A stretch of DNA of 10,715 nt from a virus (Duplodnaviria; Heunggongvirae; Uroviricota; Caudoviricetes), in the IMG/VR virus record IMGVR_UViG_2609460059_000002. The stretch is one strand, 5' to 3'. The position numbers were made by a program, and so were the translations under genes. A model generated the notes under the pieces. The model worked only from the letters and a program-made list of their open reading frames with translations. It had not been told where the DNA came from and did not search any database. Shown in pieces: positions 1 through 4,902 of the stretch; position 1 is the first letter of the stretch, and every line of letters starts with the position of its first letter.

Positions 1-291
1 ATGCTGCTGTTCTACCTGGAAGCGGCGTCCAGCGGGCTGGCTGGCGGTGCGCTGGGATGTATTGCCGGGTGGGGGCTGGCGAAAGCGATTGGCGTCATGC
101 TCTTCGACGCGCCGCTTAATTTTGCCTGGATTGTGGTGCCGTGCGTACTGGTGATTGCGGTACTGATTGCGTTGATCGGCACCTGGTTCCCGGCCCGGCG
201 GATTGCCCGGCTGGTCTGTATGGAGTTTCTTTTTTCTTTATACTCTCTTCACGGTGTTTTTTATACTGGTGTTAAATGGTATGGGATATGA
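1..291 (+). CDS. 3'-terminal fragment of an FtsX-family ABC-transporter permease gene (start lies upstream of the window); recognisable sequence ends near 216, and the open frame then runs on to 291 through unrelated AT-rich DNA
   Basis: Translation shows hydrophobic TM segments followed by the FtsX-type C-terminal motif IGTWFPARRIARL. The usual final residues after this motif are absent and replaced by low-complexity F/L/S/Y-rich sequence. Composition drops sharply from GC-rich to AT-rich at about 217-222. Confidence 0.45.
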   Translation: MLLFYLEAASSGLAGGALGCIAGWGLAKAIGVMLFDAPLNFAWIVVPCVLVIAVLIALIGTWFPARRIARLVCMEFLFSLYSLHGVFYTGVKWYGI

Positions 292-481
292 TTTTCTTAC
301 ATCATTTGCAACAGTGGCTGCATGTATTAATAATATGGGATTAGGTTTTGGGGCTACTGCATCGTCATTCGGAGTGCTTAATGACATTGCAAAATATTTA
401 ATGTGCATAGCTATGATTCTTGGTCGCCTTGAAATTTATCCTGTTATTATATTGTTTTCAGGTTTTTTTTGGCGCTCCTAA
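221..481 (+). pseudogene. 5'-truncated remnant of a TrkG/TrkH-like potassium uptake protein gene (C-terminal ~70-85 codons only)
   Basis: Frame-2 translation ends with ...NNMGLGFGATASSFGVLNDIAKYLMCIAMILGRLEIYPVIILFSGFFWRS, which from memory matches the conserved TrkH/TrkG C-terminus (GRLE...FWR end). There is no plausible N-terminal region or start for a ~480 aa transporter; the track start at 203 is a TTG inside the permease fragment. Confidence 0.5.
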
Positions 482-567
482 TATATGGCTGATTTATAAT
501 TGTGAGTTTAATATTATATTGACTCACTCATTGATCCAATACCTAACTTTACCAGCAACACCTCCGC

Positions 568-591
568 CCCCAGTAGCACTGGCTGCTGGGG
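568..591 (+). promoter_or_regulatory. GC-rich hairpin (CCCCAG-N12-CTGGGG) followed by a T-rich tract, about 30 nt upstream of the ParB-like gene start; possible terminator/attenuator or 5'-UTR structure
   Basis: Perfect 6-bp inverted repeat seen directly in the sequence (568-573 / 586-591), then tgcgTTTTATT. Confidence 0.3.
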
Positions 592-618
592 TGCGTTTTA
601 TTCATAAAGCAAGGCTGT

Positions 619-1410
619 ATGAGCGAGAAATTGAAGATCGTCTATCGCCCTTTACAAGAACTGTCTCCGTATGCACACAACGCCAGGACACACAGCCCTG
701 AGCAGGTGGCACAACTGGTAGAAAGCATTAAGCAATTCGGCTGGACTAATCCGGTGCTGATTGATGAAAAGGGCGAAATTATTGCTGGTCACGGTCGCGT
801 TATGGCGGCTGAAGTGCTCAAAATGGATTCCATTCCGGTCATCGTTCTGTCTGGTTTGATGGATGATCAGAAAAAGGCGTACCGCCTGGCAGATAATCGC
901 CTGCCGATGAATGCTGGCTGGGATGAAGATCTGTTACGGATGGAGCTGTCGGACCTAATCAATGCTGATTTTGATGTCTCCCTGACAGGCTTCAGCCCGA
1001 CAGAAATTGATGAACTGTTGACGGATGTTTTGCCCGGTACAGAAAATGAGGAGGAGCCGTATACGACGAAAATTGATACGCCTGTTTATGAGCCGTCGGG
1101 CGGTAAACCGGATATCAGTGAACTGTACGACGATACGAAAACTCAGGAGCTGATCAGCCGGATACGTTCGGCGTCTCTTGAGCCTGATATTGAGAAATTC
1201 CTCCTGTGTGCGGCAGAACGTCACACGGTGTTTAATTTCAGCAGAATTGCGGACTATTACGCTCACGCCCCCGCTGAAATTCAGTGTTTTTTCGAGGAGT
1301 CGGCGCTGGTGATCATTGATTATCAGCAGGCTATTGAAAATGGATTTGTCCGGATGACGCAGCGCATGGTGGAGATCATGCATGGTGGTGAGGAGGAGGA
1401 ATATGCGTGA
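619..1410 (+). CDS. ParB/Srx-fold (ParB N-terminal nuclease-like domain) protein, 263 aa, with a C-terminal region of unknown function and an acidic tail
   Basis: ATG at 619 with AAGG 4 nt upstream. The N-terminal ~110 aa carry the ParB-N signature layout (...LIDEKGEIIAGHGRVMAAEVL..., conserved G-x-x-R-x-x-A arginine motif). Stop TGA at 1408-1410 overlaps the next gene's start. Confidence 0.8.
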   Translation: MSEKLKIVYRPLQELSPYAHNARTHSPEQVAQLVESIKQFGWTNPVLIDEKGEIIAGHGRVMAAEVLKMDSIPVIVLSGLMDDQKKAYRLADNRLPMNAGWDEDLLRMELSDLINADFDVSLTGFSPTEIDELLTDVLPGTENEEEPYTTKIDTPVYEPSGGKPDISELYDDTKTQELISRIRSASLEPDIEKFLLCAAERHTVFNFSRIADYYAHAPAEIQCFFEESALVIIDYQQAIENGFVRMTQRMVEIMHGGEEEEYA

Positions 1411-2335
1411 TGATTTTTGCGCCTTTATTCTGACTCACGGGCGACCGGACAAAGTTCTGACTTACCGGACGTTGCGTCGTGCTGGCTATACCGGGAAAAT
1501 TTTTATCGTTGTTGATGATGAAGATAAGACACGGCATCAGTACATGGCTGAATTTGGTGAACAGGTGCTGGTGTTTTCCAAAGCCGATATCGCCAGTCGT
1601 TTTGACGAAGCCGATAATTTCGGTGACCGCCGCTCAATTTTTTACGCCCGTAATGCCTGTTTCGACCTGGCAAAACTGGTCGGGTGTAAATACTTCATTC
1701 AGCTCGATGATGATTATCACGAGTTCCAGTTTCGGGTGGATCGCAACTATGACCAGGCCTATTTTCCGATAAGGAAACTGGATGCGATCCTTTCTGAAAT
1801 GCTGGCGTACTACGAATCAATACCTGCTCTTTCCATCGCTATGTCGCAGGGCGGGGATTTTCTTGGTGACAATGGCGGCCATGCTTCGTGGGTAAAACGC
1901 AAGGCAATGAACAGCTTTATCTGTTCGGTTGACCGACCGTTCTCATTCATGGGGCGCATTAACGAGGATGTGAATACGTACACGAATCTCGGTCGCCGTG
2001 GTGAATTGTTTATGACGATCGGTGCTGTCCAGTTAGGGCAGAAACAGACGCAGAAAAACAGCGGCGGAATGACCGAGCTGTATCTGGATTCCGGAACCTA
2101 CGTTAAAAGTTTTTACTCCGTCATGTATGCGCCGTCGTGCGTAAAAATCTCACTGATGGGAGCCAGCCATAAACGCATTCACCATCAGGTCACCTGGAAC
2201 AACGCTGCAGTAAAAATCCTTCACGAAAAATACAGGAAGAAGACACCCTGCATATCAATAGGGGTGACAAATGATTCCGTATTCGAAAGTCGAGTCTCTG
2301 GCAGCGTGCCGGATGACTGCACAACAAATCGCTGA
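1403..2335 (+). CDS. Hypothetical protein with GT-A-fold glycosyltransferase-like motifs (310 aa); candidate nucleotide-sugar transferase, possibly DNA-modifying
   Basis: ATG at 1403 is preceded by GAGGAGGAGG and overlaps the upstream stop in ATGCGTGA, indicating translational coupling. The N-terminus FILTHGRPDKVLTYRTL...KIFIVVDDED resembles the first beta-alpha-beta of GT2-type enzymes. A DXD-like motif FIQLDDDYHEF lies at nt 1706-1714. The track start at 1382 lacks an RBS. Confidence 0.55.
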   Translation: MRDDFCAFILTHGRPDKVLTYRTLRRAGYTGKIFIVVDDEDKTRHQYMAEFGEQVLVFSKADIASRFDEADNFGDRRSIFYARNACFDLAKLVGCKYFIQLDDDYHEFQFRVDRNYDQAYFPIRKLDAILSEMLAYYESIPALSIAMSQGGDFLGDNGGHASWVKRKAMNSFICSVDRPFSFMGRINEDVNTYTNLGRRGELFMTIGAVQLGQKQTQKNSGGMTELYLDSGTYVKSFYSVMYAPSCVKISLMGASHKRIHHQVTWNNAAVKILHEKYRKKTPCISIGVTNDSVFESRVSGSVPDDCTTNR

Positions 2336-2522
2336 CGTTCTGGATGTTGATCTGAACCGACTGAAAGAAAATCGGGAAGCAATGACAGATTTTTATGCGG
2401 CCATCCGTAAGGGCAGAGCGAAAGGTGAAGCCGAGTTACGGGCGGCATTGTTTAAGCTTGCCAGAAAAGGGGATGCCTTTGCTCTGCGCGAACTACTCAG
2501 GGTGGATAAAAATCAGGACTAA
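2271..2522 (+). CDS. Small (83 aa) putative helix-turn-helix DNA-binding protein immediately upstream of terS; possible packaging accessory or regulatory protein
   Basis: ATG at 2271 with GGGGTGA upstream. Contains an HTH-like segment MTAQQIADVLDVDLNRLKE followed by a basic helix. Stops at TAA 2520-2522, 3 nt before the terS ATG. Overlaps the 3' end of the upstream gene by 65 nt, so the start is uncertain (alternative ATG at 2313). Confidence 0.5.
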   Translation: MIPYSKVESLAACRMTAQQIADVLDVDLNRLKENREAMTDFYAAIRKGRAKGEAELRAALFKLARKGDAFALRELLRVDKNQD

Positions 2523-2525
2523 CTG

Positions 2526-3620
2526 ATGAGCAGACCGGACTGGGGGGCGTTGCAGCAGGAGTATATTGCTGAATACACCCGCTCCGGTATATCTCCGGTG
2601 GCATGGTGTGAAGCAAGGGGACTGAATTACGCAACAGCCCGTCGTTACATCAAAAAACCTCCGAAAAATGCGCAGACAGAAATGCGCAAAACTGCGCAAA
2701 AAAGTGCGCAGAAAAAATCTGCGCAGACTGCACAAAAGCGGAACGAAAAATCTCAGGAAAAAAAGCCAGTATTCGATGCGGGCCTGAATGAGGGCGACGC
2801 GGAGGAATTTTCGTTCTGTCCCGATGAATTCGGCATTTCTGACCAGCAGGCTAAGTTTGCGATGCTTGTTGCTCAGGGGAAAAAGCCGACAGAGGCGTAC
2901 CGACTAGCCGGTTATGAGGGGCAAGGTGCGACAGCTAACAGCAACGCCAGTCGTATGCTTAGAAATGCCAGGGTTTTTCGCGCTATCAGCTACTTCCGCA
3001 ATCAGTACCAGAAACGCTATACCGCAGACCTGGATTTACTGGTGAGTCAGTTGATGGCCATTGTCCTGGCCGACCCCAATCAGCTTGCACAATTTCGCCG
3101 TGTTAACTGCCGTTATTGCTGGGGCGAGAATCATCTCTACCAGTGGCGCGATATAGCAGAATTCGACAAGGCAGCGGCGCAGGCTTCCAGAGATGGCAAA
3201 CCCGAACCGGAATATGGAGGCCTCGGCTTTGTTGATAACGCCATACCCAATCCGGACTGCCCGAAGTGCTGCGGTGAGGGAACGGGACAGCTTTATATGG
3301 CTGATACCACTCTGCTTGATGGGGATGCGCGGCAATTATATGCAGGGGCAAAACTCGGAAAATTCGGCGTTGAGATCCTGCTGGAGGATAAGGCTGCCGC
3401 CCGGCGTGAATTGTTGCGTTTGCTTTCTGCTGGTGGGGCTTTATGTGCAGATAAGCGGCTACAGGAACTGGAAATTGAACGGCGCAGAATGGAAAACCAG
3501 AAGCTGCGCAAAGAGATCGAAACGGTGGAAGATAATGAACATCCCCAGCCTGTGGCGATCAATATTAATGTGGTTGATGCCAGAGTAAGGAGTGATGAAG
3601 ATGATCTCTCCGACGCTTAA
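2526..3620 (+). CDS. terS: Terminase small subunit (unusually long, 364 aa): N-terminal HTH, A/Q/K-rich linker, terminase-small-subunit-type DNA-binding domain, Cys4-type zinc-ribbon-like motif, C-terminal coiled coil
   Basis: The N-terminus MSRPDWGALQQEYIAEYTRSGISPVAWCEARGLNYATARRYI is HTH-like. The internal segment FCPDEFGISDQQAKFAMLVAQGKKPTEAYRLAGYEG...SRMLRNARV matches the conserved phage small-terminase domain as I recall it. Sits directly upstream of, and overlaps, the large terminase gene. Confidence 0.8.
   Translation: MSRPDWGALQQEYIAEYTRSGISPVAWCEARGLNYATARRYIKKPPKNAQTEMRKTAQKSAQKKSAQTAQKRNEKSQEKKPVFDAGLNEGDAEEFSFCPDEFGISDQQAKFAMLVAQGKKPTEAYRLAGYEGQGATANSNASRMLRNARVFRAISYFRNQYQKRYTADLDLLVSQLMAIVLADPNQLAQFRRVNCRYCWGENHLYQWRDIAEFDKAAAQASRDGKPEPEYGGLGFVDNAIPNPDCPKCCGEGTGQLYMADTTLLDGDARQLYAGAKLGKFGVEILLEDKAAARRELLRLLSAGGALCADKRLQELEIERRRMENQKLRKEIETVEDNEHPQPVAININVVDARVRSDEDDLSDA
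2669..2725 (+). repeat. Cluster of five copies of the palindromic hexamer TGCGCA spaced 10-15 bp apart inside terS (encodes the A-Q-K-rich linker); candidate pac-type recognition repeats
   Basis: TGCGCA at 2669, 2683, 2693, 2705 and 2720, each embedded in A-rich context (aaTGCGCAgac, aaTGCGCAaaa, cTGCGCAaaaa, gTGCGCAgaaa, cTGCGCAgac). Confidence 0.5.
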
Positions 3621-4902
3621 TGTGCCTCAGGCGCGATTTCTTTCAATGCCCCATAAATTTAAAGCCTATATTGCTGGTTTTGGCTCGGGCAAAACATGGG
3701 TTGGGTGTGGCGGCATATGCAAGGGGATTTGGGAGCATCCAGGTATAAATCAGGGATATTTTGCGCCAACGTATCCCCAAATTCGCGATATTTTTTACCC
3801 TACAGTGGAAGAAGTTGCTGCTGACTGGGGATTGAACGTAAAAATTAATGAGGGAAATAAAGAGGTTCACTTTTATTACGGACGCCAGTATCGGGGAACC
3901 ACTATCTGCAGATCGATGGAGAAGCCACAAACGATCGTCGGTTTCAAAATTGGTAATGCGCTGGTGGATGAACTGGACATTTTGCCGAAGGAAAAAGCCA
4001 GAACGGCGTGGCGCAAGATAATTGCGCGTATGCGTTATAAGATTGATGGACTTCGCAACGGTATTGACGTTACAACCACGCCGGAAGGATTCAAATTTGT
4101 CTACGAGCAGTTTGTTAAAGCCGTGCGTGAAAAAACAGAGCTGGCCTCACTGTATGGTCTGGTGCAGGCATCTACTTTCGATAATGAAAAGAACCTGCCA
4201 GCAGATTACATTCCTTCGCTTCTTGAATCATACCCTCCAGAGCTGATTAAAGCCTATCTTCGAGGACAGTTTACTAACCTGACAAGTGGTACTGTTTACC
4301 ATCAGTTTGACCGGAAACTGAATAATTGCGAAGAAGTGGAGCAGCCAGGGGAGCCGATTTATATTGGGATGGATTTTAACGTTGGAAAGATGGCGGGGAT
4401 CGTCCATGTGCTGCGTTTGGGGCTTCCATGTGCGGTAACTGAAATCATCAATGCCTACGATACGCCGGATATGATCCGCATCATTAAAGAACGCTTCTGG
4501 CTGTATGACGGGAATGATTACCGGAAAGTGAGGGAGATTTATATTTATCCAGATGCTTCCGGAGATTCCAGAAAATCAAGTAACGCAAGTACGACGGATA
4601 TAGCCCAGCTTAAGCAGGCTGGTTTTAACGTTGTGGTGAACAGCTCGAACCCGCCAGTAAAAGATCGCGTTAACTCAATGAATGCAATGTTCTGCAATGC
4701 CAATGGTGAGCGTCGCTATAAAGTTAATGTGAAGCGTTGTCCGGTATATGCCGAATCTCTGGAGCAACAGGTCTGGGATGATAAGGGGGAGCCTGATAAA
4801 AAATCTGGCAATGATCACCCGAATGATGCCGGAGGTTATTTCATCGTTAAGCAATTCCCTATTGTCAAACCGACCGGAAGAGTCACATCACTTCGGATTT
4901 AA
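3601..4902 (+). CDS. terL: Terminase large subunit (ATPase/nuclease)
   Basis: Walker A-like motif AGFGSGKTW near the N-terminus; size about 433 aa. TAAGGAG at 3586-3592 gives the best spacing for ATG 3601 (in-frame alternatives GTG 3592 and ATG 3595). Overlaps the terS 3' end by 20 nt. Stop TAA 4900-4902. Confidence 0.88.
   Translation: MISPTLNVPQARFLSMPHKFKAYIAGFGSGKTWVGCGGICKGIWEHPGINQGYFAPTYPQIRDIFYPTVEEVAADWGLNVKINEGNKEVHFYYGRQYRGTTICRSMEKPQTIVGFKIGNALVDELDILPKEKARTAWRKIIARMRYKIDGLRNGIDVTTTPEGFKFVYEQFVKAVREKTELASLYGLVQASTFDNEKNLPADYIPSLLESYPPELIKAYLRGQFTNLTSGTVYHQFDRKLNNCEEVEQPGEPIYIGMDFNVGKMAGIVHVLRLGLPCAVTEIINAYDTPDMIRIIKERFWLYDGNDYRKVREIYIYPDASGDSRKSSNASTTDIAQLKQAGFNVVVNSSNPPVKDRVNSMNAMFCNANGERRYKVNVKRCPVYAESLEQQVWDDKGEPDKKSGNDHPNDAGGYFIVKQFPIVKPTGRVTSLRI

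Follow-up and report, generated by a model that had tools for sequence, protein, structure and literature searches.

What does a glycosyltransferase do for a phage when its gene lies between a ParB-like gene and the terminase genes, with no base-oxidising enzyme annotated around it? The question is raised by a stretch of 10,715 nucleotides from a virus of the class Caudoviricetes (IMG/VR virus record IMGVR_UViG_2609460059_000002; the whole stretch is called the window below). On its plus strand the window holds ynaK (619-1410, 263 residues, from the list of open reading frames (ORFs) and the sequence) and, overlapping it, a gene of 310 residues plus stop (1403-2335) that belongs to the TET-associated glycosyltransferase (TAGT) family, as indicated by Pfam PF20691, PHROG 842 and a glycosyltransferase-A (GT-A) fold in an AlphaFold2 (AF2) model. 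The reading that we favour, with moderate confidence, is that YnaK and TAGT make up a two-protein module that would act late and glycosylate phage DNA without prior oxidation of the base. The family and its fold are already known; what is new here is a member of the family that lacks the association with TET/JBP dioxygenases and has a dedicated two-domain partner.

The TAGT protein, a soluble GT-A glycosyltransferase

The TAGT ORF runs from an ATG at 1403-1405 through 310 codons to a TGA stop at 2333-2335, and an identical coding sequence of 933 nt is annotated in RefSeq for E. coli 042. A Shine-Dalgarno-like sequence, GAGGAGGAGG (1390-1399, plus strand), precedes it inside the 3' end of ynaK. 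The protein scores 124.7 bits with PF20691 (cut-off 27.5; E 6.3e-36), well beyond what chance would give, with residues 8-222 aligned to profile positions 4-205 of 205, and it matches PHROG 842, named T2/T6 beta-glucosyl-HMC-alpha-glucosyltransferase, with E 1e-103. No model of PADLOC or NCBIfam matched, nor did a profile search against PDB sequences return anything. The newer RefSeq label of the E. coli protein is 'GREB1-related protein'. The initial annotation had called the protein uncharacterised; taken as unclassified, this does not hold, and the protein is a branch of a curated family without an assigned function. Its relatives fall into 1334 clusters (50% identity) at E up to 0.001, and in fusions the family is joined to a second GT-A domain, class I S-adenosylmethionine (SAM) methyltransferases, a sulfotransferase or a P-loop NTPase domain.

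The AF2 model, built on 60 homologues, has a mean predicted local distance difference test (pLDDT) of 80.7 and a predicted template modelling score of 0.79. Its top structural matches in the PDB are GT-A enzymes only, namely AvpGT, ThuS/SunS, SpsA and GnT-I (E 2e-5 to 1e-3), with LARGE1 and glycogenin also among the GT-A matches, all at modest template modelling (TM) scores of 0.3-0.48. In a comparison with predicted viral structures it is closest to 'TAGT domain' proteins (E 3e-26, TM 0.78-0.85). The acidic motifs lie at the ends of strands E32-38 and E97-101 of the model, as expected of GT-A enzymes, and the GT-A-like fold that the initial annotation had proposed from the letters is borne out by the model and its matches.

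Both acidic motifs named in that annotation are present, at positions that needed some adjustment. IFIVVDDED (residues 33-41) spans 1499-1525, the range 1508-1525 given for it covering VVDDED only; QLDDDYHEF (residues 100-108) spans 1700-1726, and the range 1706-1714 given for it is exactly the DDD. The first motif is strand beta-2 with its acidic end, and on the model and conservation it probably serves the GT-A fold in nucleotide binding; neither D38 nor D41 varies among the 60 homologues, which are 59-82% identical to the protein. The DDD (residues 102-104, 1706-1714) follows model strand E97-101 and, by its conservation, is the DXD motif for metal and sugar nucleotide. R83 (1649-1651) is the arginine of the motif set R...DDD...ED, and N187-E188-D189 (1961-1969, in NEDVNTY) is, by conservation, the counterpart of the 'ED(Y/F)' catalytic motif of the family. 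In the 60 homologues R83, D102, D103, D104 and Y105 are invariant, as are N187, D189, V190 and Y193, and E188 is at least 90% conserved. The third motif thus has V190 at its third position and the invariant Y193 three residues on, so that it reads EDV...Y, not EDY/F. In a diverse set of 41 homologues of about 40% identity, the central D of the DDD, N187 and D189 never change, and conservation is at least 90% for R83 and for the other two Ds. The DDD, on whose conservation the initial annotation had staked its proposal, is therefore kept in both sets.

A conserved loop follows at T216-Y233 (TQKNSGGMTELYLDSGTY, 2048-2101), in which T216, Q217, G221, G222, M223, T224, Y227, G231, T232 and Y233 are invariant among the 60 homologues. 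The pLDDT is below 50 for residues 217-233, and the loop is probably a mobile lid over the active site. The E. coli copies end in a C-terminal tail of about 21 residues (2270-2332; pLDDT below 50 for residues 292-310), which is missing from most homologues (about 287-289 residues; 90% query coverage) and overlaps the next ORF (2271-2522).

As the initial annotation had stated in setting the protein apart from methyltransferases and phosphoadenosine phosphosulfate (PAPS) reductases, the motifs SGGKDS, DPPY/NPPY/SPPY and FxGxG do not occur in it. The protein is mildly basic (isoelectric point, pI, about 8.4), and no transmembrane segment was found (maximum of 1.08 in a 19-residue Kyte-Doolittle window). 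Taken together, these results show that the TAGT protein is a soluble GT-A glycosyltransferase of the TAGT family with intact catalytic motifs.

YnaK as the partner of TAGT

The stop codon of ynaK (1408-1410) overlaps the start codon of the TAGT gene (1403-1405) within ATGCGTGA, an overlap of 8 nt from which we infer that translation of the two genes may be coupled. YnaK itself consists of an N-terminal domain of the ParB/sulfiredoxin (Srx) fold (residues 1-135, 619-1023), a linker predicted to be disordered, and a helical C-terminal region. The N-domain is identified by Pfam ParB_N and by Foldseek, whose matches are ParB bound to cytidine diphosphate (ParB-CDP), Noc, KorB, PadC and Srx. At the nucleoside triphosphate (NTP)-binding position of Box II it carries GHGR (residues 57-60, 787-798), in which G57, G59 and R60 are invariant among homologues and the Glu of GERR is replaced by His. 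The N-domain also matches the N-terminal part of methyltransferase models (PHROG 498, E 2.5e-50; PADLOC MTase_II, E 1.8e-38). The initial annotation had noted that ParB-like genes next to phage terminases are usually paired with methyltransferases or PAPS-reductase-like proteins; its observation that this one is paired with a glycosyltransferase instead stands, and the methyltransferase matches of the N-domain agree with the usual pairing.

The C-terminal domain (residues 146-263, 1054-1407), delimited by its stand-alone homologues and their adjacency to TAGT, opens with the conserved peptide PYTTKIDTPVYEPS (1057-1098) and continues as a helical acidic domain. Its conserved motif can be written YTxKIxxPxYEP ... 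FLxxAAxRHxxFNYxKIADYYAHA ... SALVIID ... AIxxGY. Close homologues all share Y148, K151, P155, Y157 and P159 of the peptide; in the distant set Y157 alone never varies, with conservation of at least 90% at the other four. The pLDDT is below 50 for residues 136-169 of the YnaK model, and the C-terminal domain is poorly modelled as a single chain. This domain of about 110 residues belongs to no Pfam family, and in a profile search against PDB sequences it had no match, the only columns matched being those of ParB_N.

The possibility that YnaK is a canonical ParB of a ParABS system was considered and rejected. The Pfam scan found ParB_N alone and no helix-turn-helix (HTH) domain, the score against TIGR00180 is 36 with a cut-off of 58, and no ParA is annotated in the fetched 43-kb Rac prophage region of E. 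coli 042. YnaK has a pI of 4.46 and a net charge of about -26, an acidity common to all 61 homologues examined. No convincing parS-like repeats were found around ynaK, TAGT and the terminase small-subunit gene.

The pairing of the two genes is kept over large distances. The TAGT start adjoins or lies within the end of a partner ORF in 87 of 88 loci, in 73 of 75 loci with about 40-47% TAGT identity, and in about 64 of 67 further loci. The overlap measures 8-29 nt in E. coli, the Lactobacillus phages phi jlb1 and c5, a Porphyromonas phage and the haloarchaeal virus HHTV-2, and is thus kept in the Porphyromonas phage at a TAGT identity of only 27%. A search with YnaK residues 145-263 alone returned many stand-alone C-terminal-domain proteins of about 123-143 residues, encoded directly upstream of TAGT and overlapping it, on contigs in whose called genes no ParB_N was detected; Vibrio phage pv27 (191 kb) also has such a gene upstream of TAGT. 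Split partners occur as well, in which a ParB_N ORF is followed by a separate C-terminal-domain ORF. These arrangements were counted in 112 loci, dereplicated at 85% TAGT identity and each with at least 1 kb of upstream sequence. The C-terminal domain in any form lies directly upstream of TAGT in 107 of the 112; in 88 (about 79%) it comes with ParB_N, and in 19, an upper bound, ParB_N was not detected. Neither domain was found in the remaining 5, which include a relative in the T4-like Aeromonas phage Aeh1. Because the C-terminal domain is adjacent in 107 loci, as against 88 with ParB_N, it is this domain of YnaK, and not the ParB-like N-domain, that is the invariant partner of TAGT.

Among TAGT, the partner and the terminase large subunit (TerL), mean p-distances are 0.47, 0.58 and 0.79, TAGT having diverged least within the block. 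Pairwise TAGT and partner distances are correlated (r 0.54-0.58; Mantel, 0 of 999), but those of partner and TerL are as well (r 0.60), so that the TAGT-partner correlation is not the stronger one and the mirror-tree comparison is only moderately informative.

The pairing takes some further forms. The fusions of TAGT to a P-loop NTPase or to a methyltransferase have a partner-sized gene upstream in both cases, annotated as ParB_N for the former. A role of the fused P-loop NTPase domain as a substitute for ParB was rejected, since a ParB_N gene still precedes the fusion, and in 244 loci the domain never occurs as a separate copy. In several lineages (L002, 2207-3938; P0146, P0148; L177, L178, L220) one partner gene precedes either TAGT genes in tandem or a fused double GT-A protein, which suggests the stepwise building of a disaccharide.

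Protein glycosylation, in which TAGT would act on its own partner at Y148-T-T-K-I-D-T-P-V-Y157-E-P-S or on neighbouring terminase or virion proteins, is in our view unlikely, though it is the alternative to be taken most seriously. YnaK would most plausibly be the acceptor, the two forming a coupled enzyme-substrate pair by analogy with the glycocin S-glycosyltransferases and the self-glucosylating glycogenin. The Tyr/Thr-rich peptide of YnaK is conserved yet predicted to be disordered, the acidic YnaK looks unlike a DNA binder, and the module stands at the start of a structural operon. The peptide-glycosylating ThuS and SunS and glycogenin are among the structural matches, but these GT-A matches are generic (TM 0.3-0.48). 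O-GlcNAcylation of estrogen receptor alpha (ER-alpha) is reported for GREB1, a protein of the same family (PMC7968844), but those phage members that have been characterised use DNA as their substrate. Moreover, a ParB-fold NTPase domain on the putative substrate in about 79% of the loci would be left unexplained, and a glycosylated YnaK has no evident role.

The gene neighbourhood and the acceptor

The TAGT family is named for an association with TET/JBP dioxygenases or a hydroxymethyl-pyrimidine pathway. This eponymous association fails here. No TET/JBP dioxygenase or thymidylate-synthase-like hydroxymethylase is annotated in the 43 kb of Rac fetched from E. coli 042 or in the complete phages c5 (31.8 kb) and phi jlb1 (38 kb), and alpha-glucosyltransferase (alpha-GT), beta-glucosyltransferase (beta-GT) and deoxycytidine monophosphate (dCMP) hydroxymethylase are absent from the same three annotations. 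Among the recurrent neighbours in 78 dereplicated loci there is no oxidase or hydroxymethylase, although rare or very divergent oxidases could escape such a survey. The families that recur widely in these loci are TAGT itself (78), the partner (73) and terminase subunits; besides partner and terminase, no family is present in more than 15 of the 78.

The terminase is the usual feature downstream. In 47 of 61 eligible dereplicated loci a TerL gene begins within 3 kb downstream of TAGT, on the strand that also carries TAGT, with a median gap of 460 nt, and it belongs to several unrelated types (T4-like Terminase_6, lambda GpA, TerL_ATPase). A terminase follows 60 of 67 ParB_N partners versus 6 of 16 partners that consist of the C-terminal domain only (Fisher p 4e-5, uncorrected for kinship); the presence of the ParB-fold domain thus tracks a position close to the packaging genes. 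Several of the C-terminal-domain-only partners sit in replication modules with DnaB, primase or helicase genes.

In the window, a consensus scan found a terminator-like hairpin (568-591, plus strand; a 10-bp stem with 7 GC pairs, then a T-rich tail) after the trkG moron, at the upstream edge of the ynaK-TAGT-terminase block. The genes for the terminase small subunit (2526-3620, 364 residues) and large subunit (3592-4902) follow on the plus strand, the pair being identified by Pfam Terminase_2, Terminase_6N and Terminase_6C. Since ynaK and TAGT stand at the head of this packaging operon and run into it without a gap after the hairpin, they are probably expressed late.

On this footing we infer the following scheme for the favoured two-protein module. 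TAGT would work together with the product of the overlapping ynaK, the acidic C-terminal domain of about 110 residues serving as an activating or adaptor subunit that positions the mildly basic TAGT in a complex of the two proteins. The ParB/Srx-fold N-domain would be an NTP-binding accessory, coupling TAGT to DNA, to the NTP state or to the stage of packaging. With a nucleotide sugar and a divalent metal, the complex would place a sugar onto replicated phage DNA shortly before packaging, where it would protect or mark the DNA. Unlike the characterised relatives, it would do so without a TET/JBP dioxygenase or hydroxymethylase from the phage, which would leave a canonical or host-modified nucleotide as the acceptor. 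Glycosylation of DNA, raised in conditional form by the initial annotation, stays a proposal here too. By analogy, the link to DNA is supported by the likeness of the N-domain to ParB_N-methyltransferases, by the DNA-modifying enzymes that depend on ParB-like proteins, and by the TAGT relatives that act on DNA. The most specific form of the proposal is a tentative one, which we hold as possible but doubtful: YnaK, as the C-terminal domain with or without ParB_N, and TAGT would be self-sufficient and transfer sugar directly onto a canonical nucleotide of double-stranded DNA, with no methylation, oxidation or hydroxymethylation first, and the ParB fold would couple the reaction to packaging.

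Several points weigh against DNA glycosylation by this module. We know of no GT-A enzyme that glycosylates canonical DNA directly; canonical DNA has no hydroxyl acceptor, and the chemistry would be new. A hydroxylated base is unavailable, Rac, c5 and phi jlb1 being without an annotated oxidising or hydroxymethylating gene. An acidic YnaK without HTH fits a DNA clamp poorly and does not look DNA-binding. Its Box II, GHGR, is without the Glu of GERR, the CTP-hydrolysis residue in Myxococcus ParB (PMC13229309). In the literature we found no functional study or description of the ParB-TAGT pair, ynaK, HHTV-2 modification or the C-terminal partner domain, and no experiment on any member of the partnered TAGT branch. 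Finally, GREB1, as described above, is a family member reported to glycosylate a protein (PMC7968844).

The missing oxidase also bears on whether TAGT keeps the classical role of its family, acting on 5-hydroxymethyl-pyrimidines from another source, or on sugars that these already carry. The source might be the DNA of a superinfecting phage containing 5-hydroxymethylcytosine (5hmC) or 5-hydroxymethyluracil (5hmU), in which case the gene would serve the prophage for interference, or a divergent, unrecognised oxidase of the same phage. We consider this improbable. Such a role would match the activity of the characterised relatives; Pyle et al. raise the possibility that prophage glycosyltransferases hypermodify invading genomes, and the same group obtained from 5mYOX profiles thousands of contigs without a TET/JBP Pfam annotation (PMC13229309). 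In a single locus (L245, 3868-4614), in a replication-module context, the second gene upstream of a stand-alone C-terminal-domain gene and its TAGT encodes a C5 cytosine DNA methylase. However, the 78 dereplicated loci yield no recurrent candidate oxidase and the three complete genomes no annotated one, and at the putative late-operon position expression in lysogens is not expected. The module is also kept in small phages of virulent type and in an archaeal virus, for which the exclusion of 5hmC phages is implausible, and the T4-like Aeh1 relative has no partner, which marks the partnered branch as a distinct type.

Prophage GT-A enzymes often modify surface polymers, and TAGT could in principle be an envelope or small-molecule glycosyltransferase unrelated to DNA, with a role in seroconversion, a TarP-like role on teichoic acid, or a nucleotide or other metabolite as its acceptor. 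TarP is the top PDB match of related phage GT-A models (Pyle et al.), and the first-ranking PDB match of TAGT itself, AvpGT, was crystallised together with the nucleoside Ara-A. Yet TAGT has no transmembrane segment and no Gtr-type flippase or polyprenol genes were found among its recurrent neighbours; the module is spread over viruses of Gram-negative and Gram-positive bacteria, Bacteroidota and haloarchaea, which share no common envelope acceptor; and the ParB-type partner would go unexplained. We therefore judge this role to be quite improbable.

Some loci have further sugar- or base-related genes. In 5 loci a nicotinamide adenine dinucleotide (NAD)-dependent sugar-nucleotide epimerase/dehydratase gene lies about 4.3 kb downstream (for example L147, 14299-15267). 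Together with the fusions of the family, this suggests that the sugar is often extended or decorated. Two related loci, L006 and L007, have two glycosyltransferase family 2 (GT2) genes after the capsid gene, in the structural region (L006, 15837-16894). In L250 (80-1042) a radical SAM gene stands directly upstream of a ParB_N gene and a P-loop-NTPase-TAGT fusion, ahead of a lambda-type terminase; the enzyme, seen in this single metagenomic lineage, could be a candidate for preparing an acceptor. In L252, N6/N4 methylase genes lie upstream.

Prophage setting and comparison with known systems

From position 213 to 3700 the window matches E. coli chromosomes with 100% identity over trkG, ynaK, TAGT, a small ORF and the terminase small and large subunits, and the locus is that of a full-length Rac-type prophage of E. 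coli. A search of 5426 complete E. coli genomes found the TAGT gene in 996; in 869 of these, 80% or more of its length is present, for the most part with an identity of at least 95%. Could it nevertheless be an inactive relic carried with the Rac prophage? Rac is often defective: in the cryptic Rac of K-12 a deletion from mid-ynaK to ydaY has left an 87-residue ynaK stub and no TAGT, and truncated TAGT copies exist in some other genomes. Against this stand the catalytic motifs, all intact and invariant or highly conserved, the many well-preserved copies in E. coli just given, and the conservation of the pair from E. coli to archaeal viruses with TAGT as the slowest-evolving gene of the block. 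We regard a relic as very improbable.

A few features of the surroundings deserve mention. Over positions 1-213 the window matches, with 100% identity, an FtsX-type ABC-transporter permease gene that lies on plasmids in 832 E. coli genomes, and from base 213 the window continues with the 3' end of chromosomal trkG; this chimeric junction is either an assembly artefact or a real rearrangement. The 83-residue ORF at 2271-2522 matches an internal part (145-218 of 319) of PHROG 309, another terminase small-subunit family, and the small-subunit function may be split over this ORF and that at 2526-3620. In the 5' part of the latter gene, in a coding stretch rich in Lys, Gln and Ala, 5 of the 8 copies of the palindromic hexamer TGCGCA in the window fall within 57 bp (2669-2725) at a spacing of 10-15 bp. 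This cluster could be a pac array, an array recognised by the terminase small subunit, or a mere coding repeat. In Rac of E. coli 042 (L001, 13261-13926) a homologue of the epoxyqueuosine reductase QueH is encoded in the early/nin region, about 7 kb upstream of the module, where it stands without other 7-deazaguanine genes.

The locus offers a tractable setting, a Rac-type E. coli prophage, for one of many stand-alone TAGT genes, and K-12, with only the ynaK stub and no TAGT, is a clean test host. TAGT and an unannotated acidic domain of about 110 residues, usually fused to a ParB fold, form a minimal two-gene unit. If DNA is its target, glycosylation would proceed without prior base oxidation, and ParB-fold regulators would gain a further client beside dioxygenases, DpdA and methyltransferases. 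If the partner is the target, the pair would be a new phage protein-glycosylation system. Either way, the annotation of thousands of gene pairs now called 'hypothetical' or 'partition protein' would change. If canonical nucleotides were glycosylated directly, a previously unknown kind of DNA modification would exist in the Rac-type prophages of about one-fifth of E. coli genomes, and also in phages of Firmicutes, Bacteroidota and Actinobacteria and in viruses of haloarchaea.

TAGT or GT-A genes outside a known pathway have been seen before. Of 753 phage genomes, 288 were reported to carry a stand-alone TAGT or GT-A gene of 'yet-to-be defined function' (PMC13216743), and Pyle et al. found about 65% of glycosyltransferase contigs to have no 5mYOX or ThyS neighbour and named ParB-like proteins among the neighbours. 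The characterised members of the family act on DNA (PMC13216743, PMC13390438). One of them, the T2/T6 beta-glucosyl-HMC-alpha-glucosyltransferase, shares PF20691 with the Rac protein, gives PHROG 842 its name and has a GT-A fold in an AF3 model (PMC13216743). The T-even enzyme adds a second glucose to glucosyl-5hmC and co-occurs with alpha-GT or beta-GT and the dCMP hydroxymethylase pathway (PMC13390438, PMC13216743), companion genes that are absent beside the E. coli Rac TAGT. The T4-like Aeh1 relative is 24.7% identical to TAGT and has no YnaK-type partner. A tblastn search from it did not reach the T6 enzyme, so that the likeness to T6 described here is by way of the shared family.

The motif set R...DDD...ED is common to phage 5hmC GT-A glycosyltransferases and the trypanosome base-J glucosyltransferase JGT (bioRxiv 10.1101/2023.12.21.572611). 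The phage GT-A enzymes associated with 5mYOX (TET) (Burke 2021; Pyle et al. 2024) and JGT share both the fold and this set with TAGT, but they use 5hmC or 5hmU made by a neighbouring dioxygenase, of which none is annotated in Rac, c5 or phi jlb1, and the third motif of the 5mYOX-associated enzymes is EDY/F, whereas that of TAGT is EDV...Y. Another member of the same domain family is GREB1, a large animal TAGT-domain protein, for which no ParB-type partner is known.

For the partner, the closest parallels are enzymes that modify bases with the help of a ParB fold. Phage T-dioxygenases need a ParB-fold partner on double-stranded DNA (PMC13229309). In the 5mYOX176-ParB176 pair of that study the ParB has a nucleotide-binding N-domain, a disordered linker, a C-terminal domain and no recognisable DNA-binding domain, the same layout as YnaK; its client is a dioxygenase, whereas the neighbour of YnaK is a glycosyltransferase, and unlike ParB176 the C-terminal domain alone is the neighbour of TAGT in up to 19 of the 112 loci. 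DpdB, a ParB-like ATPase, is the partner required by DpdA in 7-deazaguanine DNA modification (PMC10164549). It is a ParB-fold NTPase that serves a base-modifying enzyme, as the N-domain of YnaK might, but the catalytic partner is different, and DpdB has a DGQQR motif and another C-terminal domain, unlike YnaK. Fusions of ParB_N to methyltransferases, which are abundant and enriched in prophages (PMC12704722), complete the comparison: it is the N-terminal part of such models that the N-domain of YnaK matches, at E values of 1e-38 to 1e-50.

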